Of a DNA stretch of 64,000 nucleotides, positions 1,420 through 28,012 are shown in pieces. The position numbers and the translations under genes were made by a program. Source of the stretch: a plasmid; the sequence record NZ_CP087960.1; one strand, written 5' to 3'. The notes under the pieces are model-generated. The model saw only the letters and a list, made by a program, of their open reading frames with translations, searched no databases and had not been told where the DNA came from. Numbering within the stretch: the stretch's first letter is position 1; each line of letters begins with the position of its first letter.

Positions 1420-2092
1420 TTCTAGCTTTCCTTTTATTTTTAAATTTTATAAATTCAATGAAATCAATGATTTGATCCTTATCTTCTTTTGAAAGATTAT
1501 TTGGAATATGTTGAAGTATTTCAAAAGGTCGCTTAATTGCTTCTTCTGTATCAATACTAGTATTCAGGAGATCGCTAATTGGAATTCTAAAGTGTTTAGA
1601 TAGTATCTCTAGACTTTCTTCACTTGGTTTAATCTCACCAGTAGCCCAACCCCATAATGCACGATATGAAATGCCTAGGTTTTCACAAAATTCCTTGTAA
1701 GTTAATCCTTCACGGCTGATTAAAGCTTCTAAATTTGAAGAGAAAATTTGTAAATTCTCTTTATTGTCTAACTTATCATTAGTCACTACAAATTGTAGAT
1801 AGGATGGATCAATTTCATCCGGTTCACAATTTAAAGCTTTAGCCATAGCAAGCAGATTTTTTTTACTAGGTAAAGAAGATTGTGCGTACACACGTCGATA
1901 GTTATTTATGGTTGTATACGCTATACCTGTTTTTTCTGCTAATTCTTTCGGGGTCATGCCTCTTTTTTTCAAAAGTTCATTTAAATTTTCCTTAATGCGC
2001 TCTCTACGTATACGAGCAGCCAATGATATTGCTTTTCTTCCTTTAGCCATCTTTTTCTCCTCATTTTTATTTCTATATTTATTATAATCCAA
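1409..2092 (-). CDS. XRE-family transcriptional regulator with two helix-turn-helix domains
   Basis: Two HTH_3-like segments (TPKELAEKTGIAYTTINNYRR and LTYKEFCENLGISYRALWGWATGE); divergent to an ImmA-like gene. Confidence 0.75.
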   Translation of the reverse strand: MDYNKYRNKNEEKKMAKGRKAISLAARIRRERIKENLNELLKKRGMTPKELAEKTGIAYTTINNYRRVYAQSSLPSKKNLLAMAKALNCEPDEIDPSYLQFVVTNDKLDNKENLQIFSSNLEALISREGLTYKEFCENLGISYRALWGWATGEIKPSEESLEILSKHFRIPISDLLNTSIDTEEAIKRPFEILQHIPNNLSKEDKDQIIDFIEFIKFKNKRKARNGY

Positions 2093-2172
2093 AAATCTTA
2101 AAAATTTATTTGAATAGTTTTAATAACATTATTGTTGTCAAAGAGAACACAAATATGCTATCCTTTTAATTA

Positions 2173-2184
2173 GAACATATGTTC
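2173..2184. promoter_or_regulatory. Perfect 12-bp palindrome GAACATATGTTC in the divergent XRE/ImmA intergenic region; candidate operator
   Basis: Palindrome read directly between the divergent starts at 2092 (minus) and 2211 (plus). Confidence 0.3.
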
Positions 2185-2210
2185 GAGACATGATAAAAGA
2201 GTGATTAGAA

Positions 2211-2642
2211 ATGGATATTAAGGATATACTATTCGGCTTTTTATTTGAAATAGCAAAAGAATACAAATTAGATGTTAATCTAGAAGAACCAGGAAGTCCC
2301 ATACCTACATGTGTTGTTCCAGAAGACAGAAATATCTTTTTAAATTACACAGACGTAGGAGAAAGAAAACAAGCTTTTCAATTTGCACATGAACTAGGTC
2401 ACTATTTAAATGGAGATCAAGAACGTTGTGACTGTGATAGTGCAATTCTAGATATTAAAAGAGAATATTATGCAGATAGAACTGCTACCAAATTAATTCT
2501 TAAAGGGTTAAGCAAGAATAGCATATATTTTTCAAACTTATATGATCTAATGGAAATTTGTGCGATTCCTTTTAACATGGTTGATTGTGTAAATGAACTA
2601 ATTACAAATCAATATCCATCTTTAATTGCTTCATTTAACTAG
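2211..2642 (+). CDS. ImmA/IrrE-family zinc metallopeptidase (DUF955-like)
   Basis: HEXXH motif HELGHYLNGD; small size and divergent pairing with an XRE repressor are typical of ImmA/ImmR modules. Confidence 0.7.
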   Translation: MDIKDILFGFLFEIAKEYKLDVNLEEPGSPIPTCVVPEDRNIFLNYTDVGERKQAFQFAHELGHYLNGDQERCDCDSAILDIKREYYADRTATKLILKGLSKNSIYFSNLYDLMEICAIPFNMVDCVNELITNQYPSLIASFN

Positions 2643-2660
2643 GAAAGGATTCTACAGTAA

Positions 2661-3227
2661 ATGAATGATAATGTGCTATCAAATTACGTATTTGGAGAAA
2701 CGTATTTTCCCCATGTGGCAATTCCCATTAACAGAAAAGCAGGGGATACAATCATATTTTTTGAATCAAAGCAACTTATATGGAAGATAGAAAAGCAGCT
2801 TAAAGATAAGAAAAAAATAGCAAACAATCTTAATGTTGATTCCTTAATGGCTGTAGATGCTATTGACCTTATAGAAACATTTGATTCAAAATATAATTTT
2901 TTCCTTCCAGATAACGTAAACGAAATTAGAAATATGTATTATTTTGGTAGTCTTAGCACTTTGGGAATTCAAGCTTTTCTAACATTAAAAGAAGCAACAA
3001 ACATTACAAATTTACAACCTTGGGCTACTATGTACAACAGATTAATTGATAAAGCTTATAACCAAAATAATTTATTATCAAAAAACCGATTGGAAATTAG
3101 CCCCAATAAGTTATCAAAATTTACCAAATATTTTGATACCGCTTATCAGCAGAAGATTAAAGATTTATTCAGCAAAGAAAAAGCTATCAATCATCGTATT
3201 CTATCAACAAAAGATTTTATGTTGTAA
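2661..3227 (+). CDS. hypothetical protein
   Basis: Open frame with a start 19 nt after the ImmA stop; no recognisable motif. Confidence 0.35.
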   Translation: MNDNVLSNYVFGETYFPHVAIPINRKAGDTIIFFESKQLIWKIEKQLKDKKKIANNLNVDSLMAVDAIDLIETFDSKYNFFLPDNVNEIRNMYYFGSLSTLGIQAFLTLKEATNITNLQPWATMYNRLIDKAYNQNNLLSKNRLEISPNKLSKFTKYFDTAYQQKIKDLFSKEKAINHRILSTKDFML

Positions 3228-3289
3228 TTACAAATATTATCCTTTACAATCAGTACTGTAGCTCAGCTACTAAATATTTATTTTATAAG

Positions 3290-3322
3290 AGGAACACAAT
3301 TTTTACTTGTGTTCCTTTTTTA
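3290..3322 (+). terminator. Rho-independent terminator (aggaacacaa...ttgtgttcct + T-run)
   Basis: 10-bp perfect stem followed by TTTTTTATT, directly after the 2661..3227 gene. Confidence 0.5.
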
Positions 3323-3497
3323 TTATTAAGATATGATTGCAAAAGACATATTTATATATAGTTAAATCATGCGTTTATATTATTCCAAATAATATTTTAG
3401 AAATATTTAAATAGTATATTGATAATGCAAGTAATGTGATTTATAATAATACTGAAATAAATATTTAGAATTAAGTTTAAGGAGCTAATATAATATT

Positions 3498-4307
3498 ATG
3501 ACAAAAATAATTACATTCTCAGCAATTAAAGGCGGAGTAGGAAAAACTACCATTGCATATAACTTTGGATCTTGGCTAGCCGATAATAAAAAGAAGGTTC
3601 TTTTTATTGACCTAGATCATCAATGTAATCTTAGTCAAACCTATAATGTTTATGATCAAAAGGGCAGTGTAGGCAATATATTAAGTCCTAAAGATGAAGT
3701 AGTAATTCATCATGTTGGGGAAAATATCGATTTAATTGCTGGTGATATGCACCTTGATGATATAGAGACATTAATCGAAAATAAAACTAATAAAAACATG
3801 ATGCTATATTTGTGGCTATATGATAACTATCAAAAGTTACATATAGATAAATATGATTACATTCTGATTGATTGTCACCCAGATTTCAGTACAGCTACCA
3901 AGAATGCTATTATCGTTAGCAACGATATACTAAGCCCAATTACACCTAGCGAATATGGTTATAAAGCTAAATATAACTTGCAAGAACGACTTAAAGAATT
4001 ATCTGAAGAAGCAATTGATTTTACATCTCATAAATCGTATGTCACTGCCAATCTTTATTTCTTAGCTAATATGCTAAAGCATAATACAACAAGTTCGCGT
4101 GAACTTTTAGACAGTTTAAAAGATGAAAAACAATCAGGTGATAATAGTTGTATCGCTTATATTCCTTATAAAGAGTTATTTAATAAATCTGAATTAAACA
4201 AAATTTCTTTGAGCGAAATGGCTAAAGACCATAAATTGGCAATTCAACAAAGAAAGTTTTTTGACGAAATTTTTAAAACATTTGAAGGTATAGAAAACAA
4301 ATTATAA
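3498..4307 (+). CDS. parA: ParA-family plasmid partition ATPase (small type Ib-like)
   Basis: Deviant Walker A KGGVGKTT at residues 11-18; RBS aaggag upstream; followed by a small basic protein and a repeat array. Confidence 0.85.
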   Translation: MTKIITFSAIKGGVGKTTIAYNFGSWLADNKKKVLFIDLDHQCNLSQTYNVYDQKGSVGNILSPKDEVVIHHVGENIDLIAGDMHLDDIETLIENKTNKNMMLYLWLYDNYQKLHIDKYDYILIDCHPDFSTATKNAIIVSNDILSPITPSEYGYKAKYNLQERLKELSEEAIDFTSHKSYVTANLYFLANMLKHNTTSSRELLDSLKDEKQSGDNSCIAYIPYKELFNKSELNKISLSEMAKDHKLAIQQRKFFDEIFKTFEGIENKL

Positions 4308-6718: not shown

Positions 6719-7528
6719 ATGAAAGATACGTTTGAGGAGATAGGTAAGTTAATAAGGAAATTCTTGAAAGAAAAAGGTGCTGGTATTATAGATGTATTAT
6801 TTCTGATGGAAATAATTTATTTAATATATATGCCAGGTCTGATTCAAAAAAATTTGTTGTTATGGAACGGGATAAATTTTGGAAAAGCATTCTACAATAT
6901 AGGAAGAGATTTTTATTTTCGCTATATTGGCTATGAACTAGCTATCTGTATATTGATACTGTTAATCTTAATTACAATTTATTATCGTAAACATAATAGA
7001 CGTCTTCATAATTATCCTGATGGTTTTAAAAGAGGCCATTCAGCATTTGTTGCTATAATAAGACTTTTACGCTTAATATGGTATTTTTTACACGCTGGGT
7101 GGACTATATTTCTTTTAATAGCTATATTTTCTGGATATGAAAACACTTTATATCCTTTTTTCAATAATTTGTATAATCCATTAAATATTGCTTATCTGAT
7201 TTTTGTGATAATTAAAGTCTTATCTTTTACGAAAGAAAAGATGATTCATTATGGTGATATATTTTCTCAAAAAGAACTTATTACTAATTTCTATATTATT
7301 GATGAAAAATCTGACTATATTTTAGTAAAAAACACGTTTTTAGAAAAACCAATGTTTTGTTTAATGTTACGATTAGAAACCGAGACAATTCAATATGAGC
7401 TTTTAGATTATTCTGAATCTTTTAGTGAAATGGTAGTAGAATTTGATCGCAGAGCAAATGCATCTAATAAGTGTTTTGACGTTGAAATTCCCGAACGTGA
7501 AAGACCAGTTAAAAGTATTCATGAGTAA
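6719..7528 (+). CDS. Polytopic membrane protein, hypothetical (269 aa)
   Basis: Several hydrophobic helices (e.g. YELAICILILLILITIYY, WTIFLLIAIFSGY); 62 bp upstream of the TAC-like operon. Confidence 0.35.
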   Translation: MKDTFEEIGKLIRKFLKEKGAGIIDVLFLMEIIYLIYMPGLIQKNLLLWNGINFGKAFYNIGRDFYFRYIGYELAICILILLILITIYYRKHNRRLHNYPDGFKRGHSAFVAIIRLLRLIWYFLHAGWTIFLLIAIFSGYENTLYPFFNNLYNPLNIAYLIFVIIKVLSFTKEKMIHYGDIFSQKELITNFYIIDEKSDYILVKNTFLEKPMFCLMLRLETETIQYELLDYSESFSEMVVEFDRRANASNKCFDVEIPERERPVKSIHE

Positions 7529-7590
7529 CTAATTTTATAAAATAATTTAATTACAATGTTTTATTATGTAATGAAGTAGGAAAATTGTAA

Positions 7591-8241
7591 ATGTCGGATT
7601 ATTATCTTTCAATTCCGTTATACCATGTTGATTTAAAAGAAAACAATAAATTATTTGTAGAAGGGGAAAATATTCCTGGATCTAATGAAGATGGAGAATG
7701 GGGAGGAAAAGGATTATATTTATGGGATAATTTTAAGAATGCTAAATATTGGCAAAATGTTTATTGGAAAGATGATTCGGCTAATGCATCTATTGTTAAA
7801 ACTGTACTAAAAGTACGAGAATCAGAGCTGTTAGATTTGAGTGAACCCATGCAAGTTAAAGAATTTGAAAAATCTTTACTGGGTATTGCACAAATAGCTA
7901 AAAAATCTAAAAATCCAAATATTTCGAAAAAAGCTGATTATATTTTGAAAGATGCACCAAAGGGTTACGCTATTAATTACTATAGCGAATATATGCAAAA
8001 AGTATGTCAACATTCTTTTAAAGTAGTAAGGCTTGTAGGGCTATACCCAAGTGTAAGTACGTCTACTTTTTTTAAAGATGATTTAGTGTTAAATAAATAT
8101 TATAATGAGAGGAAGAAAGACAAAGAAAAAGTGCTTGCTCAAAAATATTTTATGCCACATGTAACAATTCAATCTAAAACGATTTATGTAGTAAAAAAAC
8201 AAGCATTGCTCTTACAGAGAGAAATTTGTCAGGAGGATTAA
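7591..8241 (+). CDS. Hypothetical protein; candidate toxin/effector of a three-gene operon ending in a SecB-like chaperone
   Basis: RBS aggaaa; stop at 8241 is 1 nt before the next start; no known toxin motif recognised. Confidence 0.35.
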   Translation: MSDYYLSIPLYHVDLKENNKLFVEGENIPGSNEDGEWGGKGLYLWDNFKNAKYWQNVYWKDDSANASIVKTVLKVRESELLDLSEPMQVKEFEKSLLGIAQIAKKSKNPNISKKADYILKDAPKGYAINYYSEYMQKVCQHSFKVVRLVGLYPSVSTSTFFKDDLVLNKYYNERKKDKEKVLAQKYFMPHVTIQSKTIYVVKKQALLLQREICQED

Positions 8242-8242
8242 T

Positions 8243-8593
8243 ATGAGTTTTAAAATACCATCAGCTGATGAATTTATAAAGAAACTAAATGAGTTAGATG
8301 AAAAGACTTTTGATTCAATCTATGAAAGACTTATTTATGATGTTGAAGCAGACAAGATTAATAAGACTTTAGATGTTTTTTCTAAGATTTTGGTTAAGAC
8401 TACAACTGTATCCTCGCCAAATATCCCAACTTCTAATAGTTCTGATGAATCTATAAGTGATATATCTATATCCAGTGATTATATTCATACTTCTCCTCAA
8501 GCAGATATAAAGACTCTTCTAAATTATAGAAAAATCAATACTGAAAACCTTGTTAATAGTGAAATTGTTTCTAGTAGTAAGGAAGTGGCCTAA
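8243..8593 (+). CDS. Small protein with a Ser/Thr-rich, predicted disordered C-terminal tail; candidate antitoxin with a chaperone-addiction (ChAD-like) extension
   Basis: N-terminal ~55 aa helical segment followed by TTTVSSPNIPTSNSSDESISDISISSDY...; stop is immediately adjacent to the SecB-like gene start (8593/8594). Confidence 0.3.
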   Translation: MSFKIPSADEFIKKLNELDEKTFDSIYERLIYDVEADKINKTLDVFSKILVKTTTVSSPNIPTSNSSDESISDISISSDYIHTSPQADIKTLLNYRKINTENLVNSEIVSSSKEVA

Positions 8594-9031
8594 GTGAATA
8601 GTAAGGATCGAAAAAGTGCTTTTCAATTTGATAATCCGGTACTTATAGAATCAGTTTTTTTTGAAAATTTAGCATATAAAAACGATTTTAGTGAAATTGG
8701 ACAATTAACATTCAAAATAAATAAAATAATTGGTGAAAAGCAAAAGTTAGAAGAACATAAAATTGGGGCGCCAGTAGTTCTTACACTTACTACAAGTGAA
8801 AAAATGGAGTTAGATGAAGATACGCCTTGTTTTATACGTGTAACTATGAGGGCCAACTTTGTATGGAATGAAAATGATTTTTCAGATGAAAGCGTTGATA
8901 AGTTGCTTTCTGTGAACGCACCTAGTTTATTACTCGGATATATTAGGCCCAAAATTGTATCATTAACTCAAGATTCTGATCTTCCTACTCAGCAAGTTCC
9001 TTTTATAAACTTTTCAGAAGAGAGTAAATAA
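8594..9031 (+). CDS. SecB-like chaperone
   Basis: Alignable by eye to E. coli SecB: FQFDNPVLIESVFFEN vs FQIQRIYTKDISFEAPN; VVLTLTTSE vs VVLRVTVTAS; APSLLLGYIRPKIVSLTQDSDLPTQQVPFINF vs [32 protein letters not shown]. Confidence 0.7.
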   Translation: MNSKDRKSAFQFDNPVLIESVFFENLAYKNDFSEIGQLTFKINKIIGEKQKLEEHKIGAPVVLTLTTSEKMELDEDTPCFIRVTMRANFVWNENDFSDESVDKLLSVNAPSLLLGYIRPKIVSLTQDSDLPTQQVPFINFSEESK

Positions 9032-9073
9032 ACAGAAGGTTATACGTTAAAGATGTCGTATAATTAATGACAA

Positions 9074-9112
9074 AAGGAGCGTAGAATTATATAAATTCTA
9101 CACTCCTTTTTA
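9074..9112. terminator. Bidirectional terminator hairpin (aggagcgtagaatt / aattctacactcct) shared by the convergent SecB operon and the small toxin gene
   Basis: 13-bp stem with one mismatch; T-runs on both strands. Confidence 0.45.
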
Positions 9113-9250
9113 CTTTTCCTTTTTATTATGGCGATTGTCCCACCAATCATCGAATAACTTATTCAAAATGTGAGTTACAACTGGTACCAGAATAACAATT
9201 ATAATATTTTGAATAATGAATGTAGAGATATTGATAATTGTTTCAATCAT
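9110..9250 (-). CDS. 46-aa hydrophobic peptide MIETIINISTFIIQNIIIVILVPVVTHILNKLFDDWWDNRHNKKEK; candidate Fst/Ldr/Lpt-type type I toxin (not in ORF track)
   Basis: Translated by hand from the minus strand; RBS ggagtaaaATG; single TM helix with a Pro then a charged DxxxxKK tail like Fst; an 8-bp inverted repeat (aatactga/tcagtatt, 9259-9281) in the 5' UTR; convergent bidirectional terminator. Confidence 0.4.
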   Translation of the reverse strand: MIETIINISTFIIQNIIIVILVPVVTHILNKLFDDWWDNRHNKKEK

Positions 9251-9452
9251 TTTACTCCGTAATACTGAATATGAATCAGTATTAATTATATTAACTTCTT
9301 TTAAAAGCTAAACAATTATTTTAAATTATAATCAACTTTCCCTCTCTTTCAATTTTTTATTAGTTTATCTTGAAAAGAAGAAAATTATTTTTAATGTAAA
9401 CTCAAAATAGAATAAGGAGTAAGATTTTTTTCTTACTCCTTATTTAATGCGT

Positions 9453-10256: not shown

Positions 10257-10523
10257 ATGGATAATCCATATACTGGAAAAATATCCCAAAAGGGTCAGTT
10301 AGTAATTCCTGCAGCAATTAGAAAGGCTTTAGGTTTAGATAAAGGGGCTAAAGTTTCTTTTGAAGTAAAAAATAATGAAGTAATTGTAAAAAAGCTTCCG
10401 ACAGCTTTAGATTGGTCAAATTTAATTGCTGAATTACCTGAAGAAAAGGTTGAGATTGATAAAAACGGTCAGTATGATCCAAAAAAATCTCCTAATTTTC
10501 ATGACTGGATGGTTAATGGCTAA
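10257..10523 (+). CDS. AbrB/MazE-family antitoxin (SpoVT/AbrB swapped-hairpin domain)
   Basis: ISQKGQLVIPAAIRKALGLDKGAKV motif; stop overlaps the start of the downstream toxin (TAATG). Confidence 0.65.
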   Translation: MDNPYTGKISQKGQLVIPAAIRKALGLDKGAKVSFEVKNNEVIVKKLPTALDWSNLIAELPEEKVEIDKNGQYDPKKSPNFHDWMVNG

Positions 10524-10870
10524 TGAAACCGATGGAGATTTACATCGCAGACGTACCATTTGATGATAAAGATGATTCAAAAATACGTCCGGCTTTAGTG
10601 GTTAAAGTCAGTGATGAACGTGTAAATATATTTAAAGTAACAACAAAATTTAAAAATAAATCTAAAAAGATAAGGCGACTATATTATCCAATAAAAAAAT
10701 GGAAAGAATCAGGCTTAAAAGAATTATCCTATGTAGATACACATAGAACATATAATATATCACAGAAAGCGGTATTTAGTAGAAAGCCAATTGGTAAGTT
10801 AGATAATGGAGATATTGTTGGGTTATTTGAGTTTATCCAAAAAATAAAAAAGGAAAGCAAAAATGTATGA
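10523..10870 (+). CDS. MazF/PemK-like toxin (divergent member)
   Basis: N-terminus MEIYIADVPFDDKDDSKIRPALVVKVSD parallels MazF GDLIWVDFDPTKGSEQAGHRPAVVLS; TTKFKNKS...YYPI resembles MazF TTQSKGYPFEV; translationally coupled to the AbrB-like gene. Confidence 0.5.
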   Translation: MKPMEIYIADVPFDDKDDSKIRPALVVKVSDERVNIFKVTTKFKNKSKKIRRLYYPIKKWKESGLKELSYVDTHRTYNISQKAVFSRKPIGKLDNGDIVGLFEFIQKIKKESKNV

Positions 10871-11502: not shown

Positions 11503-11802
11503 ATGATAGAAAGAAATATATCAAGATTCCAAGTACGAATCGATTCAGATTTGGTAAGTGGTGTAAAAGCTAAGCTAGCTCAAGCAGGTATTGATCAGCA
11601 AAACATATTAAATGCTTTTTTAACTTATGTTGCATATACTCAAAAAATTCCTTTTCAAAAATTAACCAAAAGAGAAGAATTACAAGCAAAAGCAGCAGCT
11701 ATCTTTGCTGCTGATAATGAGGATAAAGAAATTCCTGAAATTACTAATGAAAAAGACTTAGAAGATTGGTATGCAGAAAATGGTGATAATGATGAAGAAT
11801 GA
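11503..11802 (+). CDS. RelB/DinJ-family antitoxin (ribbon-helix-helix) with an acidic C-terminal extension
   Basis: ISRFQVRIDSDLVSGVKAKLAQAGIDQQNILNAFLTYVAYTQKIPF closely follows the DinJ pattern (RIDEDLK...MGLT...PF). Confidence 0.7.
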   Translation: MIERNISRFQVRIDSDLVSGVKAKLAQAGIDQQNILNAFLTYVAYTQKIPFQKLTKREELQAKAAAIFAADNEDKEIPEITNEKDLEDWYAENGDNDEE

Positions 11803-12208
11803 TCATTTTCAACCGTTTGATGTAGCTTCTATTTTTTGGATTTATGAGGAAGATATAGATAGTAACAAGGATAAAAAGAGGGGGAAGCTTAGACCTGGTT
11901 TAATTACAGGTTTCACTCCAGATGGTAAGGCAGTTTTTCAGAAGATTACCACAAAGTTTAAGAATAAAAGCCCATTCATTAAGCTTAGATACTATAAAAT
12001 TCAAGATTTAAAATCAGCAGGTTTAAATAGAGAATCATATATTGATATTAAAGATAGTAGAATTATTAAATTAGATAATATTGTTAAAAGAGGGAGTCTA
12101 TCAGAAAAGGATATTGATGATTTAATTGATTTTAAACAAACATATCCAGAAAGGCTTAGAAAATTTCAATTAAAACAAATTAATAGGAATAGAGGACTAG
12201 AAAGATGA
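11771..12208 (+). CDS. MazF/PemK-like toxin paralog. The real start is probably at 11789/11792 (MMKNDHF), giving the usual short antitoxin overlap
   Basis: Shares KLRPGLITG...KITTKFKNKS...YYKIQDLKSAGL...SYID with the 10523..10870 protein; ATGA stop/start overlap with the next small ORF. Confidence 0.45.
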   Translation: MQKMVIMMKNDHFQPFDVASIFWIYEEDIDSNKDKKRGKLRPGLITGFTPDGKAVFQKITTKFKNKSPFIKLRYYKIQDLKSAGLNRESYIDIKDSRIIKLDNIVKRGSLSEKDIDDLIDFKQTYPERLRKFQLKQINRNRGLER

Positions 12209-13247: not shown

Positions 13248-14435
13248 CGTTGATTGTAAAATCAAATTGAACACTTTAGAAAAATAAAAAGTCCATTCGG
13301 ACCTGTTTGATAGAATGTTAATAACCACAAAAACTTTCTATTGGAGGTCAAAATGGACTCTTTACATTCTACCATGAACCAGCACGTTAAAGGAAAGCAT
13401 TTATCATTTGAAGAGCGAGTTATTATTCAATTGCGTTTGAAAGATGGCTGCTCTTTGCGTGCAATTGCTCGTGAACTCAACTGTTCTCCTTCTACTATCA
13501 GTTATGAGATTAAACGTGGCACTGTAAAACTGTATCATGGTAAAGTCAAAAGATACAAGGCTACTCAAGGACATGATGTATATCAAGCTCATCGTAAAAA
13601 TTGTGGGCGCAAATCAGACTTTCTCAAAAAAACTCAATTTATTCACTATGTCCACAAACATTTCTTTAAAGACGGTTGGTCGCTTGATGTTTGCAGTAAT
13701 CGTGCCACTGCTGCTGGCGAATTCTCTAGCAGCGATGTTGTCTGCACCAAAACTCTTTATAATTACGTTGATAAGGGCTTATTAGGCATTTATAATTACG
13801 ACTTGCCTGAGAAGCTTAAACGCAATACCAAGCTTCATCGTGTTCGCAAAAACAAGAAAAAGCTTGGCAGAAGTATTGAAGAACGTCCAAAAGAAATTAG
13901 TGAACGTAATGAATTCGGTCATTGGGAATGCGATTTGGTTCTTGGACATAAGACTAAAGATGATGAAGTGCTGTTAACCTTATCTGAGCGCATGAGTCGT
14001 GAATTCTTAATTATTCGTATTCCCGACAAGACTTCTATCAGTGTCATGCAAGCCTTTAAAGAACTCCAAAGACAATACAGTGAACACTGGAATGATATTT
14101 TTAAAACTATTACCACTGATAATGGTTCAGAATTTGCGGATCTGTCCAACCTAGAAGAAGCATCCAATACACTGGTTTACTATGCCCATCCTTACACTTC
14201 TTGTGATAAGGGAACAGTTGAAAGACACAATGGTCTTATTCGCAGATTCATTCCTAAAGGAGAAGCAATAGCTAACTATTCTTTACAAAATATCATTGAT
14301 ATTGAAACCTGGTGCAACTCATTGCCAAGAAAGATCTTAGCTTATCATACACCAGATGAAATCTTTGAAAGAGAATTAGATCGAATCTATCAAGCAGCTT
14401 AACCAAAAGTGTTCAATTTATTATTGCAATTTACG
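13248..14435 (+). mobile_element. IS30-family insertion sequence, copy 1 (1188 bp), flanked by the 13-bp direct repeat AAAAAATAATTAT (13235-13247 and 14436-14448)
   Basis: Boundaries set by comparing the two identical copies. Imperfect terminal inverted repeats CGTTGATTGTAAAATCAAATTGAACAC / GTGTTCAATTTATTATTGCAATTTACG. Flanking direct repeats read directly. Confidence 0.8.
13341..14402 (+). CDS. IS30-family transposase (353 aa)
   Basis: N-terminal HTH and DDE region typical of IS30 transposases; identical copy at 20767..21828 (minus). Confidence 0.85.
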   Translation: MEVKMDSLHSTMNQHVKGKHLSFEERVIIQLRLKDGCSLRAIARELNCSPSTISYEIKRGTVKLYHGKVKRYKATQGHDVYQAHRKNCGRKSDFLKKTQFIHYVHKHFFKDGWSLDVCSNRATAAGEFSSSDVVCTKTLYNYVDKGLLGIYNYDLPEKLKRNTKLHRVRKNKKKLGRSIEERPKEISERNEFGHWECDLVLGHKTKDDEVLLTLSERMSREFLIIRIPDKTSISVMQAFKELQRQYSEHWNDIFKTITTDNGSEFADLSNLEEASNTLVYYAHPYTSCDKGTVERHNGLIRRFIPKGEAIANYSLQNIIDIETWCNSLPRKILAYHTPDEIFERELDRIYQAA

Positions 14436-14937: not shown

Positions 14938-17238
14938 ATGAACGATAGATTATTTTGGAACTTTAACGATAAAATATCTGGAAATTATATGTGGTATAGT
15001 ACTTCAATTCTGCCGTTATCATTGAATTATGAAGATTTAAGAAAAGTAAGTAGAAATAAAGATCATTATTTTCTTCAATTTAATTTTTCAAAAAATAAAA
15101 TTCAAGAACATCAAGGGTTTAAAATACATATTTCAGCAACTATTAAGAATTATGAACAGATACTAGACATAATTTTTAATTTTTGCAAAAAAAATAATAT
15201 TACATTTAAATATATTGCTAATAAATATGAACTAGAAAAGAATTTTTCTGGACTATGTTCGTTTTGGAGTACAGGAAAGTTTATAACTATATATCCTCAG
15301 CCTGGAGATTTTAGGTCAATAGTTTCTAAACTTTATTCGCTCCACGAATTAAAAGAACTAAAGGGTATATATATATTAACTGATCGGCGTTATAAGGACT
15401 CTAATGTAATATTTTATAGATATGGAATTCTGAATAATGATTCAAATAAATGTATTTTTGATCCAAATGGAAAATATCTATATACAGACTATTCAATTGC
15501 TAAATATCAGTTACCATATTTTGTAAATGAACCATTTCCCATAAATAAGGATGAGGTAAGTCCTCACAGTAAGTACTTATTTTTGAAGTATACACCTATT
15601 CGGAACATATATAAGAAGTCCTCGGGGTCAGTATATTGTGTAAAAAGTAATAATGGTGATACATATATTCTAAAAAATGCACGTCCAAATTTTTCAGATG
15701 GTAATAGTACTCAAATTGAGAGACTAAAGAATGAAAAAATAAAATTAAAAAAATTAATTGATTTTAATTTCTTTCCGCATGTGGTTGAAAGTTTTATAGA
15801 AAATGATAATTATTTTTTAGTCGAAACATTAGTTACAGGTGTAACTGTTAATAAATTTCGTGCAGAAGATTTATCAGGATATGCAACAGATACCCAAATT
15901 TTACCTAAGAGCTTTAAAGTTTTAGAAATAATAAAAGATATGTGTAGAAAGTTACTTGCATTACATAAAAAAGATATCTTCTTAGGAGATATATCCGCAA
16001 ACAATATATTAGTTAATGAAAAAACATCAACAATTAATTTTGTAGATGTTGAACAGACTGAATTTAATGTTTCTAAGAAAAAGATATCTTGTTTTTTTAG
16101 AACACCGGGTTTTTTTGATAAAAAAACGGCTACTCTTCCTCCTTTGCAGCAAGATATACAGCAATTAGGATATGTAATTATGTCTCTCTTTTGTAGAGCT
16201 AATTCTTTCTTAGAAATTGATTCATCGGGTAAAACTACAATTTCATTTTTTAAGGAATTTGCAAAGATATATCATATACCTAAAGCTTTAGTTGAGATAC
16301 CATTAACTCTGATTAGAAATCCTAGAGAATCTTCTTTAAAAAGTGTTTTAAATGTAAAACTAATTTTAGATTTTGAAAGTGATAAAGAGAAAATTTGTAC
16401 CTTTCCTGAAGATCTTTTGCTTAAGTTAAGACATACTTATTTTTGTGGTAAGTTAGATAATATTTGCTCACAAGATATTGAACAAATATCCTTTTTTAAT
16501 AAAGAAGACGTTTTGTATACAGATAAAATTCTCAATTTAAATATGAGATATTTAGAAAACAAAAATACTAATTCAATATCGCAAGAAAGCAAAAACGCAA
16601 TAAATTTAGCAAAAAAAGAATTAGTAAATTGTTTTTCCAATGCAATTAAATCAGAATTGGAGTCACGTGACTTAAGTATATTTTTAAGTGTTTTAAATTG
16701 TTACTTTTTTGCTAATAACTTTGATATAAATACACAGAAAGAAAAGGAAGATATTGAAACAATAATAGATTACTTGCTAACAAATTACAAAGTCGTTAAT
16801 AATGGTCTTGTTGGATTTCGAAAATCGAAAAAATCAGTTTATATTATGCCATATATATCGAGTGGAACAGCAGGTATTTTGATAGTTTTATTGTTTTATA
16901 AATATATAAGTGACACCGATAAATATGATGAAATAATAAAAACAATAGCATATGGATTTAAATTAACGACGTTACCTAAATCTGGTGGCTTTGCTAATGG
17001 TCTATCTGGAATTGTTTACGCACTTCTTTTATATAGAAAAGTAACAGATGATAGTAAGATTGATAATTTGACTAAGAAAATGATCAATGAATTACATATG
17101 TATACTATATATTTATCAAATAATTTATATGTGATTTCAGATGATTTTAAACATGTAAGCCTAGATTTTGTGGATGGTAATTTAGGCATGATTAAAGTTC
17201 TGGAAAAGGCAAAAAAAGTTCTCAATTGGGAAAGCTGA
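14938..17238 (+). CDS. Class III-type lanthipeptide synthetase (LanKC-like): N-terminal lyase, central Ser/Thr-kinase, C-terminal LanC-like cyclase lacking Zn ligands
   Basis: Kinase-like catalytic loop HKKDIFLGDISANNILVN and DFG-like FVDVEQ. C-terminal GGFANGLSGIVYALLL corresponds to the LanC GxAHGxxG motif but has no His. No CHG or WCxG Zn-ligand motifs (DFVDGNLG instead), as expected for class III rather than class IV. Confidence 0.65.
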   Translation: MNDRLFWNFNDKISGNYMWYSTSILPLSLNYEDLRKVSRNKDHYFLQFNFSKNKIQEHQGFKIHISATIKNYEQILDIIFNFCKKNNITFKYIANKYELEKNFSGLCSFWSTGKFITIYPQPGDFRSIVSKLYSLHELKELKGIYILTDRRYKDSNVIFYRYGILNNDSNKCIFDPNGKYLYTDYSIAKYQLPYFVNEPFPINKDEVSPHSKYLFLKYTPIRNIYKKSSGSVYCVKSNNGDTYILKNARPNFSDGNSTQIERLKNEKIKLKKLIDFNFFPHVVESFIENDNYFLVETLVTGVTVNKFRAEDLSGYATDTQILPKSFKVLEIIKDMCRKLLALHKKDIFLGDISANNILVNEKTSTINFVDVEQTEFNVSKKKISCFFRTPGFFDKKTATLPPLQQDIQQLGYVIMSLFCRANSFLEIDSSGKTTISFFKEFAKIYHIPKALVEIPLTLIRNPRESSLKSVLNVKLILDFESDKEKICTFPEDLLLKLRHTYFCGKLDNICSQDIEQISFFNKEDVLYTDKILNLNMRYLENKNTNSISQESKNAINLAKKELVNCFSNAIKSELESRDLSIFLSVLNCYFFANNFDINTQKEKEDIETIIDYLLTNYKVVNNGLVGFRKSKKSVYIMPYISSGTAGILIVLLFYKYISDTDKYDEIIKTIAYGFKLTTLPKSGGFANGLSGIVYALLLYRKVTDDSKIDNLTKKMINELHMYTIYLSNNLYVISDDFKHVSLDFVDGNLGMIKVLEKAKKVLNWES

Positions 17239-17251
17239 GGTGAATTAGCTA

Positions 17252-18835
17252 ATGATAAAATCATTTTTTAAGTCTAATTATAAGTATACTTTTATTTTTA
17301 TTGTTTCGACTGTTATTGGTGGGGCCTTAGTTGCTTATGGGAGTTACGGTTGGACGCCTGCTACTGACTCTTTAAAAAATCTTGATACTAAAAAATTTGT
17401 TTTGTGGATTATTTTGATAGTAGTGACATCAGCTGGTGGTAGAGTCATGCAATTCTTAGCTGGTTATCTCTTTACAAAACAAGAGCAAGAATATTTTCAT
17501 AATCTAAGGAAAAAGCTTATAAATCATTATTATGAAAGTAAGCCTGTAGATAAGCTATCTAATATGCAAAATAGATTAACAAATGATCTAAAAATTATTA
17601 GCGATCAAGCTTTAGATCCAGTATCTAATGTAGTCCTTTGTGTAGTTGATTTAGTATTTTCTGCATATGTAGTTTTAACTTTTAATTTTTGGCTGCTTTG
17701 TTTAATTTTAGTTTTAGCAGTAATTATGCTTTATTTGCCAGATTTGTTGTCTAAGCAATTAGAAAAAGCAACAAATGAAGTTTCCTCTAACTATAGCAAG
17801 TATATTGATACCATTGAAAAATGGTTAGCAGGGCTAGCAGTTTTACAAAGATATCGGTCAAAGACAAAATTATCTGCTGCCTTAGCTAGAAGTTCTTCAG
17901 GATTAGAGAAAGCCACAGTAATTCGAGATAAAAAATCTGTTGAATTACGTAATCTCACTTATACTGCTAATATGGTTGCTCAAGGAGCTGTTCTTCTGGC
18001 AACTGGATTATTAGTATTGAATCATCAGTTAACTATTGGTACCCTTATGAGTATTGCGAATTTTTCTAGCTTAATTTTTTCTCAGCTTGTTAATGTTACT
18101 TCACAGATTGGTTCAATTAAGTCAACTAGATCGTTAGCAGATAGTGTAATGAAAGAAATTAAAGAGTTACCAAATTCAGAGAAAAAAGAAGACTCTCTAA
18201 CAAACTTTGACACTCTTTCTACTCATGGTTTAGTTCTTCAGTATCCTAATGGTGAAAAAATCCAGTATCCTGATATTCAGATTAAGGCGGGAGAAAAAGT
18301 ACTTTTAAGTGGTGATAGTGGAACCGGAAAGTCAACGCTGTTTAAAATGATTTTAAATGAAATAAAGCCTACTCAAGGTAAAATTGTTTTTAAAGATAAA
18401 CTAGGCAAGATTCTCAATCCTGATTATTCGCAAATTGGATATATTCCGCAAGATCCAGTTGTTTTTCCAGGAACAATTGAAGATAATATTACGATGTTTA
18501 ATAGTAGACTGAATAAAAAAGCAGCGAATTGGGCACAAAAGGTTCAGTTAGCAACAGACTTTGAAAAGTTCCCTGATGGTATTAAAACTGTCGTAGATCT
18601 AGATAAAAAGAATCTTTCTGGAGGACAAAGACAAAAAATAATTTTGGCTCGAACTGAAGTATATAACAGCAAGATTATCTTAATTGATGAAGGTACTTCG
18701 GCAATAGATTCGGTTGCAACAGAGCAAATTCTAAAAAATATTCTTAAAGAACCTGCAACGGTAATCTTTATTGCGCATAATCTAACTGATGAAATGGTTC
18801 AATTATTTGATCGTAGGATTAACTTAAGTAAGTAA
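17252..18835 (+). CDS. ABC transporter, fused permease-ATPase exporter (no N-terminal C39 peptidase domain)
   Basis: Six N-terminal TM helices; Walker A GDSGTGKST; signature LSGGQRQKIILAR; Walker B ILIDEGTSAIDS. Confidence 0.85.
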   Translation: MIKSFFKSNYKYTFIFIVSTVIGGALVAYGSYGWTPATDSLKNLDTKKFVLWIILIVVTSAGGRVMQFLAGYLFTKQEQEYFHNLRKKLINHYYESKPVDKLSNMQNRLTNDLKIISDQALDPVSNVVLCVVDLVFSAYVVLTFNFWLLCLILVLAVIMLYLPDLLSKQLEKATNEVSSNYSKYIDTIEKWLAGLAVLQRYRSKTKLSAALARSSSGLEKATVIRDKKSVELRNLTYTANMVAQGAVLLATGLLVLNHQLTIGTLMSIANFSSLIFSQLVNVTSQIGSIKSTRSLADSVMKEIKELPNSEKKEDSLTNFDTLSTHGLVLQYPNGEKIQYPDIQIKAGEKVLLSGDSGTGKSTLFKMILNEIKPTQGKIVFKDKLGKILNPDYSQIGYIPQDPVVFPGTIEDNITMFNSRLNKKAANWAQKVQLATDFEKFPDGIKTVVDLDKKNLSGGQRQKIILARTEVYNSKIILIDEGTSAIDSVATEQILKNILKEPATVIFIAHNLTDEMVQLFDRRINLSK

Positions 18836-20760: not shown

Positions 20761-21921
20761 TTTTGGTTAAGCTGCTTGATAGATTCGATCTAATTCTCTT
20801 TCAAAGATTTCATCTGGTGTATGATAAGCTAAGATCTTTCTTGGCAATGAGTTGCACCAGGTTTCAATATCAATGATATTTTGTAAAGAATAGTTAGCTA
20901 TTGCTTCTCCTTTAGGAATGAATCTGCGAATAAGACCATTGTGTCTTTCAACTGTTCCCTTATCACAAGAAGTGTAAGGATGGGCATAGTAAACCAGTGT
21001 ATTGGATGCTTCTTCTAGGTTGGACAGATCCGCAAATTCTGAACCATTATCAGTGGTAATAGTTTTAAAAATATCATTCCAGTGTTCACTGTATTGTCTT
21101 TGGAGTTCTTTAAAGGCTTGCATGACACTGATAGAAGTCTTGTCGGGAATACGAATAATTAAGAATTCACGACTCATGCGCTCAGATAAGGTTAACAGCA
21201 CTTCATCATCTTTAGTCTTATGTCCAAGAACCAAATCGCATTCCCAATGACCGAATTCATTACGTTCACTAATTTCTTTTGGACGTTCTTCAATACTTCT
21301 GCCAAGCTTTTTCTTGTTTTTGCGAACACGATGAAGCTTGGTATTGCGTTTAAGCTTCTCAGGCAAGTCGTAATTATAAATGCCTAATAAGCCCTTATCA
21401 ACGTAATTATAAAGAGTTTTGGTGCAGACAACATCGCTGCTAGAGAATTCGCCAGCAGCAGTGGCACGATTACTGCAAACATCAAGCGACCAACCGTCTT
21501 TAAAGAAATGTTTGTGGACATAGTGAATAAATTGAGTTTTTTTGAGAAAGTCTGATTTGCGCCCACAATTTTTACGATGAGCTTGATATACATCATGTCC
21601 TTGAGTAGCCTTGTATCTTTTGACTTTACCATGATACAGTTTTACAGTGCCACGTTTAATCTCATAACTGATAGTAGAAGGAGAACAGTTGAGTTCACGA
21701 GCAATTGCACGCAAAGAGCAGCCATCTTTCAAACGCAATTGAATAATAACTCGCTCTTCAAATGATAAATGCTTTCCTTTAACGTGCTGGTTCATGGTAG
21801 AATGTAAAGAGTCCATTTTGACCTCCAATAGAAAGTTTTTGTGGTTATTAACATTCTATCAAACAGGTCCGAATGGACTTTTTATTTTTCTAAAGTGTTC
21901 AATTTGATTTTACAATCAACG
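20734..21921 (-). mobile_element. IS30-family insertion sequence, copy 2 (1188 bp, identical to copy 1, inverted), flanked by the 13-bp direct repeat TATTATTTTTCTT (20721-20733 and 21922-21934)
   Basis: Same termini as copy 1; flanking direct repeats read directly; inserted within a reconstructable ORF. Confidence 0.8.
20767..21828 (-). CDS. IS30-family transposase (identical to 13341..14402)
   Basis: Identical 353-aa translation. Confidence 0.85.
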   Translation of the reverse strand: MEVKMDSLHSTMNQHVKGKHLSFEERVIIQLRLKDGCSLRAIARELNCSPSTISYEIKRGTVKLYHGKVKRYKATQGHDVYQAHRKNCGRKSDFLKKTQFIHYVHKHFFKDGWSLDVCSNRATAAGEFSSSDVVCTKTLYNYVDKGLLGIYNYDLPEKLKRNTKLHRVRKNKKKLGRSIEERPKEISERNEFGHWECDLVLGHKTKDDEVLLTLSERMSREFLIIRIPDKTSISVMQAFKELQRQYSEHWNDIFKTITTDNGSEFADLSNLEEASNTLVYYAHPYTSCDKGTVERHNGLIRRFIPKGEAIANYSLQNIIDIETWCNSLPRKILAYHTPDEIFERELDRIYQAA

Positions 21922-25525: not shown

Positions 25526-28012
25526 TTATCTTTCTAAATTCCGTGATTGCATAGCGTGTTTTCTTGCAAGTTGTTTTTTATTAATTTCTCCGCGTCTTGT
25601 TGCCCACTTTTCCTTAAATTTTTGGGACAATTCCATAGTTTTAGAGTCCTGAGTTGGTTGCATTCTTCCACGGCTAATCAAAAAGGCTTGTCTATGCATT
25701 TCTGCTTTAGACAAACCTTTTTCTTTTTGTGTTCTTGATTGTTGATCAGGTATATTTTGCAATTTATTAATATTTGACTTAATTGCCACTATAAATTTTG
25801 AATCGTAGAATTTGCTTTTACTTAACGCATTTTGTTGAGAAAGTAAAGTTTTTTGAGTGTTTTTAATAATAGAGCTTTCATTAGTATCATCAATCTCTTT
25901 AGTATTAATATTTAAAGTTGCAAAAAGCCCTTTATGTTTATTGGCAGATTCAGCGTTTCCCCAGACTGTGTATTCTACTTGGCTTGGATTAGATGAATTA
26001 ACCGATACATCAGTTAAATTTAGTCGTTTCTTTTGATTAAGTTCCTGGATAGCTTGAGCAACTTTAATTGGCTTCTCATTGATTAGGTCATAGTTTTGTT
26101 GCTCTTCTAAACTTAGTTTGTTTAGATACTCAACATAACCCCATGCTTTGACGTTTCCACCTACATCTTTACGCTCATCAAAGTTTTCGACCTTTAGCGG
26201 CTTAAAATTTTTCATTGGATAAGTGCCAGGATTAATAGGTCGAAATAAGGAGTAGTAGCGGTAAATTTTTGGTTTTTCATTTTCTACTACTTTTTCATTT
26301 TCTTGCGATAATTGACGGATTTTTTGTTTTATAGTTGGAAATTGTTTATCGAAATATGAGGAAATCTTCTTTTTGATATCTGGAGTAAAAGTAGAATATT
26401 TGATATCAATTTTACTGTTATAAATTTCTTTATCTTTAATTACCGAGTTATTTAATCCAAGATTTGAAGCATAAGTTTCAAAGGCTCGTGCAAACACTTC
26501 GCTAGGTGTCTTTAAATAAGTACTCTCTTTAGGAGTGAGCGCCGTTGAGCTGTTTCCGATTTCTGCTTGAATAGATTGCAAAGAGTCGGAAAAGTTTTTG
26601 TTAATAGATAGAGGTAAGTTAGATCTACCATTGTAGTTATAGTCTAAGAAATGACCGTATTCATGTACAAAACTTTGTAAGCCCGTTTCTTTAGTTTTCT
26701 TATCATATCTAAAGTCGACTGCTAAAGTATTGTTGATTGGTGTAAACATGCCTAGTGCTCTATGATTTTTGAGCTTTCTAAATCGCAAAATAGGTTTAAT
26801 TCCATTCTTTGCATGAGGTAAAGCAGAAACAGTTTGTTTTAATTCGGGAATAAATTTTTTCAATTCTTCCAAGTCTACATCATTATCAATTTCGACTTTT
26901 TTAAAATGTTTAGATAAATCATTAGTGAGACGTTCCATTTCTGTTTGAGTTGTTTTATCAATATTCTTTTTAGTTTGAAAGAATGTTGCATGACTTGATC
27001 TAGCTTGCTCAGCATCATATTGTTGTTGTAGCGTTAAGTTGTATGTATCTTTTAAGTATCGATTAACAAAGTTTAACGTTTGATTTTTGGATAAAACGTT
27101 TGAAACTGTTGTTTTAGGAATTATTTGATCTTTATTAATAAGGTATTCCGATAGTTCTTTTTCAATTGCAGATTTCGGTTTTTGGTTTTTCTCAGTATCT
27201 TCTTTATTAATTCTTATCTTTAATAAGCTTTCTTCTGGTGTATTTTGCCATTCTTCATAAGTTGGCATATGAGCTTGTTTTGCAAATATTTCATAGTAAG
27301 CATCAGGGGAAAACAAATATTCATTGCTACTCCCGCTATTTTTAGGATCAGTTAAGTTATCAATAAGTTCGTTGAGTGGCTCTAATGATTTTTCTTTAAA
27401 GTTTCGTTTTAAGTCAATATTTAGTTTGTCGTATCCAATCAATAGATCACGACTGTATGCTGTAAAGTATACTTTTTCATTTCTATTATTTGCTCTAGTT
27501 ATCCAAGGAGTGGTATCTGTGTCTGGCAAACCATTATAGTAAGTATTTAATGAGGCTCGTTGCTTAATAGTTTCGTTCGTATCAGTCCAGTATCTTCTTT
27601 GACCATAGTAAGTGGAAGGTATTGAACCGTTGGGTTTGATAAATATAAAAGTTTTTTCACCATCTTTTTGATACTGATAGATATGATCTTCCCATTTATC
27701 TTTTTGAGTGTTTTTAAATTTGAATTTCTTTTTGAACTCTATTTTTTCTTCAGGAGCCAGTTTAGAACTATCAACTTTTTTTATCTCATTTTCTTTAATA
27801 TCTAGCTTATGAGATAAGGCTAAGACTTCGTCTTTATCTGTATAGTCGCCATTTTCAACTCCATTTTTGTACAGATATCGTGCAGTTTTTCGATAAAGCG
27901 TATATAGTGTATCGTTAGACGTAACAGTTATTGTTTTGCTGATGTGAGTTAAACCATATTTTTGTTTCATTAAATCAACAATTTTATTTGGTGTATTAAT
28001 TTGATCAGTCAT
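25526..28012 (-). CDS. Large conjugation-associated protein (828 aa) with a zincin-like HEXXH motif (ArdC/metallopeptidase-like C-terminal domain?)
   Basis: FVHEYGHFLDYNY contains HEYGH; size and context typical of plasmid accessory proteins; the family assignment is tentative. Confidence 0.35.
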   Translation of the reverse strand: MTDQINTPNKIVDLMKQKYGLTHISKTITVTSNDTLYTLYRKTARYLYKNGVENGDYTDKDEVLALSHKLDIKENEIKKVDSSKLAPEEKIEFKKKFKFKNTQKDKWEDHIYQYQKDGEKTFIFIKPNGSIPSTYYGQRRYWTDTNETIKQRASLNTYYNGLPDTDTTPWITRANNRNEKVYFTAYSRDLLIGYDKLNIDLKRNFKEKSLEPLNELIDNLTDPKNSGSSNEYLFSPDAYYEIFAKQAHMPTYEEWQNTPEESLLKIRINKEDTEKNQKPKSAIEKELSEYLINKDQIIPKTTVSNVLSKNQTLNFVNRYLKDTYNLTLQQQYDAEQARSSHATFFQTKKNIDKTTQTEMERLTNDLSKHFKKVEIDNDVDLEELKKFIPELKQTVSALPHAKNGIKPILRFRKLKNHRALGMFTPINNTLAVDFRYDKKTKETGLQSFVHEYGHFLDYNYNGRSNLPLSINKNFSDSLQSIQAEIGNSSTALTPKESTYLKTPSEVFARAFETYASNLGLNNSVIKDKEIYNSKIDIKYSTFTPDIKKKISSYFDKQFPTIKQKIRQLSQENEKVVENEKPKIYRYYSLFRPINPGTYPMKNFKPLKVENFDERKDVGGNVKAWGYVEYLNKLSLEEQQNYDLINEKPIKVAQAIQELNQKKRLNLTDVSVNSSNPSQVEYTVWGNAESANKHKGLFATLNINTKEIDDTNESSIIKNTQKTLLSQQNALSKSKFYDSKFIVAIKSNINKLQNIPDQQSRTQKEKGLSKAEMHRQAFLISRGRMQPTQDSKTMELSQKFKEKWATRRGEINKKQLARKHAMQSRNLER

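Follow-up and report, generated by a model that had tools for sequence, protein, structure and literature searches.

The three-gene operon described here very probably belongs, as a divergent Gram-positive representative, to the CmdTAC (PD-T4-9) family of toxin-antitoxin-chaperone (TAC) systems. It is cargo of a conjugative plasmid of the Lactobacillus gasseri type, on which it follows shortly after rep, and it lies in a 64,000-nucleotide stretch of plasmid sequence record NZ_CP087960.1 that is referred to as the window. The features of the operon and its borders are as follows.

7538..7543, + strand: TAAAAT, a putative -10 box of the operon's own promoter, 47 nt 5' of the ATG (inferred only)
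7591..8241, + strand: cmdT-like toxin gene, 216 aa, ATG start
8243..8593, + strand: cmdA-like antitoxin gene, 116 aa, ATG start, after a 1-nt gap from the toxin gene
8594..9031, + strand: cmdC-like SecB-type chaperone gene, 145 aa, GTG start, with a 0-nt gap after the antitoxin stop codon
9072..9110, not assigned to one strand: bidirectional intrinsic-terminator-like hairpin ending the operon, with a 17-bp stem, one mismatch and T-runs on both strands
9110-9250, minus strand: small convergent ORF, 46 aa, hydrophobic
Ending 62 bp upstream of the operon: membrane-protein gene, 269 aa, with at least three TM-like segments

An earlier note, made from the sequence alone, had described a three-gene operon with gaps of 1 nt and 0 nt, and the coordinates are exactly as claimed there. 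Each of the three ORFs is preceded by a Shine-Dalgarno-like motif read from the sequence. A TAAAAT or TATAAT box is followed by AATTACAA at equal spacing in the window and in a related locus, L003, which keeps the -10-like box though the operon there has no preceding membrane-protein gene. A consensus promoter scan returned no full -35/-10 pair and no site upstream of the operon, and its total was not above that of shuffled sequence. A promoter belonging to the operon itself at 7538..7543 is therefore only weakly indicated. At the 3' end, the hairpin at 9072-9110 sits between the operon and the convergent 46-aa ORF. The region spanning 9032-9125 folds with -25.6 kcal/mol (z -4.89), and none of 200 shuffled sequences folds equally well. 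This hairpin was missed by the consensus scan because of the G-C-pair rule that the scan applies.

The order toxin-antitoxin-chaperone (T-A-C) is found at about 50 of the 69 related loci, which are spread over several phyla (Lactobacillaceae, Streptococcus, Clostridia, Bacteroidota and Spirochaetes), and close relatives show this order again with tight junctions. When compared with three relatives, all three genes have dN/dS values of 0.1-0.3 (0.16-0.20 for the toxin gene and 0.11-0.25 for the chaperone gene). The three ORFs are real genes that are kept as a trio under purifying selection, and an arrangement by chance is ruled out by the recurring T-A-C order together with the low dN/dS values. 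The carriers of the relatives include the moron slot of phage LJ and prophage or chromosomal sites, and in L003 the operon lies directly behind a Rep3 gene.

PD-T4-9 was found in 2022 and later renamed CmdTAC (PMC9519451); how it acts was described in 2024 (PMC11618068; Mets et al. 2024). CmdT is an ADP-ribosyltransferase (ART) of the DTX type with an H-Y-[E/D/Q] triad, and the Y41A mutation is inactivating (PMC11618068). CmdA carries two N-terminal helices and a disordered tail whose C-terminal AA is recognised by ClpX; changing this AA to DD stabilises CmdA, and VA is a validated ClpXP degron of M. tuberculosis HigA1 (PMC11618068; Mets et al.). CmdC is a SecB-like tetramer that is titrated by the T4 capsid protein Gp23, whereupon CmdA is degraded by ClpP and the freed CmdT blocks translation by ADP-ribosylating single-stranded RNA on adenine N6 at GA sites (PMC11618068; Mets et al.). 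CmdT alone is non-toxic in E. coli, and CmdA is needed for CmdT folding (PMC11445053, PMC11618068). CmdTAC homologues are stated to exist in Gram-positive species (PMC11618068), and our search of the literature turned up no account of such TAC systems, or of any other, in Lactobacillus. The cmdTAC locus in a P2-like prophage of E. coli N2250, located by using a primer from the PMC11618068 supplement as a probe, served as the reference. It encodes a toxin of 192 aa, an antitoxin of 77 aa (ending in LAA) and a chaperone of 129 aa, and as a positive control these proteins matched the PADLOC models PD-T4-9_A, PD-T4-9_B and PD-T4-9_C with E-values of 4e-97, 3e-38 and 7e-61, respectively.

Searches of Pfam and NCBIfam with the 216-aa protein returned no significant family, and HigB, MqsR and HicA in particular were not matched. 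The placement of the toxin outside these three families in the earlier note therefore stands, but its proposal that the toxin is new does not. The PADLOC model PD-T4-9_A (CmdT) matches the protein with an E-value of 2.6e-6, over residues 33-121 only, and matches all 125 full-length members of the toxin family. An exhaustive profile search yielded 241 representatives of this family, mostly 170-210 aa in length, and close relatives of the window protein comprise only 5 clusters above 60% identity in a database of 5.8 billion clusters. Alignment of the toxin family with genuine E. coli CmdT by hhalign gives a probability of 93% (E 3e-7), and pairs Y43 of the window protein with the catalytic Tyr of E. 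coli CmdT (Y41 in the numbering of the paper). The two proteins share about 23% identity over 66 aligned columns, a remote similarity. Conservation within the family is highest at G39, Y43 and W54 (each 125/125), followed by H12 (123/125) and D82 (120/125). Putative NAD-site residues are H12, Y43 within the motif W37-G-G-K-G-L-Y43-L-W, and Y53/W54.

An AlphaFold model of the toxin built on the 125-sequence alignment is confident (pLDDT 91), and this model was used throughout; a version built on 6 sequences reached a pLDDT of only 43 and was set aside. The structural matches to the model are exclusively ADP-ribosyltransferase folds (PARP/tankyrase, diphtheria toxin, exotoxin A and MbcT). A Lys/Glu-rich insert around residues 155-190 is modelled with low confidence. 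As for the third residue of the triad (E/D/Q), no conserved acidic or amide residue occurs where strand 195-201 begins. Q194, whose column varies across the family, is a possible counterpart of a Gln in E. coli CmdT, and a weak alignment of the toxin profile to an approximate PARP1 core sequence, taken as a lead only, stops before E988. Neither a single profile nor a deep profile of the toxin gave useful matches in sequence searches of the PDB, and Pfam PARP is matched by two members of the family. Judged from these alignments and the model, the 216-aa protein is a CmdT-family protein with a predicted DTX/PARP-type ADP-ribosyltransferase fold in which the NAD-site His and the catalytic Tyr are kept.

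The last gene had been read in the earlier note as a SecB homologue bearing the C-terminal SecB signature, and family-level searches agree on both points. On its own, the 145-aa protein falls just under the Pfam cut-off for SecB PF02556 (E 7.2e-5, 23.2 bits vs 26), and 44 of its 46 syntenic orthologues match this Pfam family. The profile of the SecB-like family aligns with E. coli SecB 1qyn over the full length (E 7.3e-11), including the NAPxxLxxYxR...PxxNF region; a PDB search with the single sequence gave nothing useful, and the family profile alone worked. The same note had allowed that the protein might turn out not to have the SecB fold, but the homology searches found SecB homology. PD-T4-9_C matches the protein with an E-value of 2.5e-5, and hhalign relates the chaperone family to E. 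coli CmdC with a probability of 97.5% (E 5e-12). The GTG start is backed by a conserved SxFQF motif at residues 8-12.

Full-length homology is likewise shared with the housekeeping SecB of Proteobacteria. The window protein differs in that it is encoded in a plasmid toxin-antitoxin (TA) operon and scores far under the NCBIfam equivalog cut-offs for housekeeping secB (23.6 bits vs 102.8 for TIGR00809, and 17-21 bits vs 143-223 for the others). To our knowledge, neither a housekeeping SecB nor a SecB export pathway is expected in Firmicutes, and the 145-aa protein is therefore taken to be a dedicated TA-type chaperone. By its profile matches, it is a SecB homologue and not a housekeeping SecB.

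The ORF at the antitoxin position is conserved in place and size among relatives. Its first ~50 residues are conserved among four close relatives (dN/dS 0.08-0.20), and its tail evolves fast (dN/dS 0.5-1.1). The C-terminal half of the 116-aa protein contains 25% Ser, 7% Thr and 10% Asn, consistent with the Ser/Thr-rich tail reported previously. An Ala is the last residue in 42 of 45 syntenic proteins at this position (34 AA, 7 VA and 1 IA), measured against an Ala background of 4.2%, and is found at the end of 5 of 125 toxins and 0 of 46 chaperones. The window antitoxin ends in Val-Ala, the same two residues that form the ClpXP degron of M. tuberculosis HigA1. A [polar]-Y-[I/L] motif around Y80 is common to the four close relatives, and Y80, within D-Y-I-H, is a candidate aromatic ChAD anchor. 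The N-terminal ~50 residues are presumed to bind the toxin, and the Ser-rich tail is presumed to be the ChAD. As far as can be read from its sequence, the 116-aa protein has the layout of CmdA, with a conserved N-terminal part, a variable Ser-rich tail and a C-terminal Val-Ala. The proposal of a TAC architecture with a ChAD-type antitoxin is supported.

The antitoxin model PD-T4-9_B matches 0 of the 45 syntenic antitoxins, and hhalign detects no homology between this antitoxin family and E. coli CmdA (0.1% probability). A CmdTAC homologue has been defined by a CmdT homologue, any second ORF and a SecB-like third gene (PMC9519451); sequence homology to CmdA is not demanded by the authors because the antitoxins are 'widely variable'. 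The window operon, with its predicted CmdT homologue, its second ORF and its SecB-like third gene, belongs within this definition.

E. coli CmdTAC (PD-T4-9; ECOR22, O112ab:H26) and the window operon share the T-A-C order with tight junctions, a homologous toxin with an ART fold and the catalytic Tyr, a homologous SecB-like chaperone, and a location on mobile elements. CmdA likewise has a disordered tail and a C-terminal ClpX-type degron, and the CmdA of O112ab:H26 (121 aa) is similar in size to the window antitoxin. Differences are seen in toxin length (216 aa in the window vs 192 aa for E. coli CmdT, with the Lys/Glu-rich insert at ~155-190 in the window protein), in the antitoxin, which shows no sequence relationship to CmdA and has VA rather than LAA/AA at its C-terminus, in the host (Gram-positive Lactobacillus vs E. 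coli), and in the carrier (a conjugative plasmid, beside rep, vs a P2-like or other prophage). The prototype TAC system, HigBA1-SecB(TA) of M. tuberculosis (Rv1955-1957), has an antitoxin whose C-terminal chaperone-addiction region is bound by a dedicated SecB-like chaperone, and the HigA1 degron corresponds to the last two residues of the window antitoxin. However, that system employs a HigB RNase toxin and an HTH HigA antitoxin, and neither family is detected in the window operon. DarTG, MbcTA and Xre-RES differ in having two genes and no chaperone. DarT targets thymidine in ssDNA, MbcT and RES degrade NAD+, and the respective antitoxins (macrodomain, MbcA and Xre) are not present in the window operon.

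The mechanism established for CmdTAC is most likely to apply to the window operon by analogy with the E. coli system. The SecB-like tetramer would hold and shield the disordered tail of the antitoxin in a three-protein complex, in which the N-terminal domain of the antitoxin would help the toxin to fold and would neutralise it. In an infected cell, a freshly synthesised structural protein of the phage might compete for the chaperone, and the exposed antitoxin could then be degraded by ClpXP via its C-terminal Val-Ala. The freed toxin would ADP-ribosylate single-stranded RNA (mRNA), block translation and thereby abort the infection. Both RNA as the target and a capsid-type trigger are extrapolations in this scheme from the E. 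coli system. The trio is probably a defence system, and the possible defence role raised in the earlier note is supported.

The replicon is of the Lactobacillus gasseri plasmid type, as established from matches of the flanks to plasmids in PLSDB. The matches to L. gasseri plasmids run up to ~6683 on the rep side and resume from ~9454 on the resolvase side. The segment between ~6683 and ~9454 has no DNA or protein match among 72,556 PLSDB plasmids, and the operon DNA and the toxin protein used as direct queries of PLSDB gave no matches; these results show only that the cargo segment is rare. In one related plasmid, a Fic gene occupies the slot after rep. The window encodes a Rep3-type initiator, and parA and rep lie directly upstream of the operon. 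Immediately 3' of the operon are a resolvase, a MazE/PemK pair and a RelB-type module, in line with the adjoining addiction modules noted previously. The window also encodes a VirD4/TraG coupling protein, a lysozyme/M23 hydrolase and SpaA pilins, which makes the label 'conjugative plasmid' given in the earlier note a reasonable one.

This setting bears on whether a CmdTAC-type module might serve mainly in plasmid addiction, such that a ClpXP-labile antitoxin decays after plasmid loss and the ART toxin kills plasmid-free segregants. The position directly downstream of parA and rep, which the window shares with the independent relative L003, and the degron on the antitoxin are consistent with such a role, and the flanking resolvase, MazE/PemK and RelB modules fit maintenance as well as they fit defence. 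However, every CmdTAC system studied by experiment is a phage defence system triggered through its chaperone, and relatives reside in prophages, phage moron slots and chromosomes, where addiction makes less sense. Moreover, CmdT-type genes are rare on plasmids, with the E. coli type in 3 of the 72,556 PLSDB records and the window type in none. We consider a mainly addictive function possible but rather improbable. The two roles are not mutually exclusive; given an unstable antitoxin, the module would also put cells that lose the plasmid at a disadvantage, and the relatives in the phage LJ moron slot and at prophage or chromosomal sites favour defence as the general role. It is unlikely, though conceivable, that the Lactobacillus sub-family formed by the 5 clusters above 60% identity is a functionally shifted CmdTAC with a different class of trigger, perhaps a substrate other than the GA sites in mRNA, and a dual function in addiction and defence on a conjugative plasmid. 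This suggestion draws on the ~155-190 segment of the toxin, the lack of an identifiable third catalytic residue and the Ser-rich tail ending in VA; candidate triggers are a structural protein of a Lactobacillus siphophage, or a conjugation or plasmid-loss signal.

Other explanations concern the toxin itself. An ART-fold protein could instead degrade NAD+, as MbcT and RES do, or modify DNA or protein rather than mRNA. The conserved pattern H...G-x-Y-F...Y is of the DTX/PARP type and not the R-E-S of RES toxins, the profile searches tie the family to CmdT, and the two members that match Pfam PARP point the same way; such an activity is accordingly judged quite unlikely. That the module carries a toxin of a previously unknown family, as the earlier note proposed, would agree with the missing Pfam and NCBIfam assignments, the mere 5 close homologues in 5.8 billion clusters and the lack of a PLSDB match. 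However, genuine E. coli CmdT has no NCBIfam match either, and the missing annotation thus reflects missing models. With PD-T4-9_A matching the window protein and all 125 family members, and with an ART fold and an alignment to E. coli CmdT that includes the catalytic Tyr, we give a new toxin family almost no credence. The TAC layout is real, the toxin is of a known kind, and the operon is a previously unannotated copy of CmdTAC. A decaying, non-functional remnant might be suspected from L071, a near-identical sister plasmid fragment in which the toxin has a 5-aa deletion beside the invariant W54 and the resolvase is truncated. In the window, by contrast, none of the three ORFs is disrupted, conserved positions retain their residues and comparison with three relatives gives a dN/dS of 0.1-0.3, so that decay of this copy is very unlikely.

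An assignment to CmdTAC would extend this family to a conjugative plasmid of human-associated lactobacilli, whose phage resistance bears on their ecology and on their probiotic and dairy use. It leaves the current understanding of TAC systems unchanged. It does expose an annotation gap, in that Pfam and NCBIfam hold no CmdT model and the PADLOC antitoxin model is specific to E. coli; as a result, the annotation of such operons reads 'hypothetical, hypothetical, SecB' and they seem novel. An antitoxin that ends in Ala-Ala or Val-Ala, a rule across the family, and has a fast-evolving tail offers a simple marker for further CmdTAC operons. CmdT is itself a TAC toxin family, one that the list in the earlier note (HigB, MqsR and HicA) had left out.

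Two neighbouring genes were considered as further parts of the system. The membrane-protein gene is present 62 bp upstream as previously described, and was rejected as a fourth component since it is missing from L003 and from all other related loci. The 46-aa ORF, which runs on the minus strand toward the terminal hairpin of the operon, was rejected as a part of the system because of the same absence. It had been called an Fst-like type I toxin converging on the terminator. The convergent ORF and the hairpin are indeed there, but the Fst label did not hold, since the match to the NCBIfam Fst model NF033608 is sub-threshold (E 0.42, 10.5 bits vs a cut-off of 26) Pfam gave no match, and Rfam gave no RNA family for either the ORF or the surroundings of the terminator; the ORF encodes a hydrophobic peptide that resembles type I toxins, its family unconfirmed. 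Outside the window, the near-identical fragment L071 is the one place where both genes accompany the operon, and they are unrelated neighbours that lie outside the module.

Alanine is the last residue in 42 of the 45 proteins found at the antitoxin position in loci related to the operon, with Ala-Ala at the end of 34 (alignment A4). A family-wide alignment of these antitoxins (n = 45) was not possible. C-terminal Ala is a simple marker of CmdA-type antitoxins that is independent of sequence, and this feature could help locate CmdTAC-type systems. Related loci were found in phage and prophage DNA:

Lactobacillus phage LJ (L073, NC_048680.1), 1836-3450: CmdTAC-like locus flanked by endolysin and integrase genes
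E. coli N2250 (L072, NZ_CP189474.1), 2447-3660: genuine cmdTAC locus, at a hotspot of a P2-like prophage

In the locus of phage LJ, a temperate phage of L. casei, gene 1 encodes a distant CmdT-like protein (hhalign 86%), a further ORF encodes a 138-aa protein with the C-terminal residues GAAA, and the SecB-like gene carries the existing annotation 'protein-export chaperone SecB'. Judged from sequence, this locus looks like an unrecognised CmdTAC-like moron. The E. coli N2250 genes, which are flanked by a DinI-like gene and a portal gene, carry only the RefSeq labels hypothetical, hypothetical and SecB. A CmdT model is absent from NCBIfam.

The sister plasmid fragment L071 exhibits 98-100% identity to the window. 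Its toxin (protein P0002, 8001-8636) has a deletion of five residues (VYWKD) directly after the invariant W54, and may be inactivated in this close relative. The resolvase gene of L071 (9848-10132) is truncated, leaving 94 aa. On either side of the operon, the window carries the following features:

6719-7528, plus strand: 269-aa protein with at least three TM-like segments and a soluble C-terminal part of ~90 aa
9110-9250, minus strand: ORF for a peptide of 46 aa, whose N-terminal segment is strongly hydrophobic and whose tail is charged
9352..9325, minus strand: sigma-70-like promoter-like site of the 46-aa ORF (11/12 match)
10257-10870, plus strand: MazE/PemK-type pair
11503-12208, plus strand: RelB-type antitoxin, with an ORF of 145 aa after it

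No family was detectable for the 269-aa protein, whose adjacency to the operon recurs only in L071; it was not found in L003, a relative with the operon directly after a Rep3 gene, or in any other related locus. The convergent 46-aa ORF shares a terminator-like hairpin with the operon, and its stop codon abuts this hairpin. The predicted peptide resembles a type I toxin, matching the Fst model only below threshold (E 0.42); no Pfam or Rfam family was found. The 145-aa ORF after the RelB-type antitoxin has no Pfam match; a TTKFKNKS...YY motif is common to it and the PemK-like toxin. The MazE/PemK-type pair and the RelB-type module therefore place two additional TA modules within 3 kb of the operon.

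Elsewhere, the window carries:

25526-28012, minus strand: protein of 828 aa containing a DarA_C (defence against restriction) domain
13341-14402 and 20767-21828: two copies of an IS30-family (ISLga1-like) transposase

The DarA_C domain suggests an anti-restriction role on this conjugative plasmid. The region bracketed by the IS30-family copies codes in L071 for a RamC_N/LANC_like lanthipeptide synthetase and an ABC transporter, and the window holds matching ORFs at 14938-17238 and 17252-18835.
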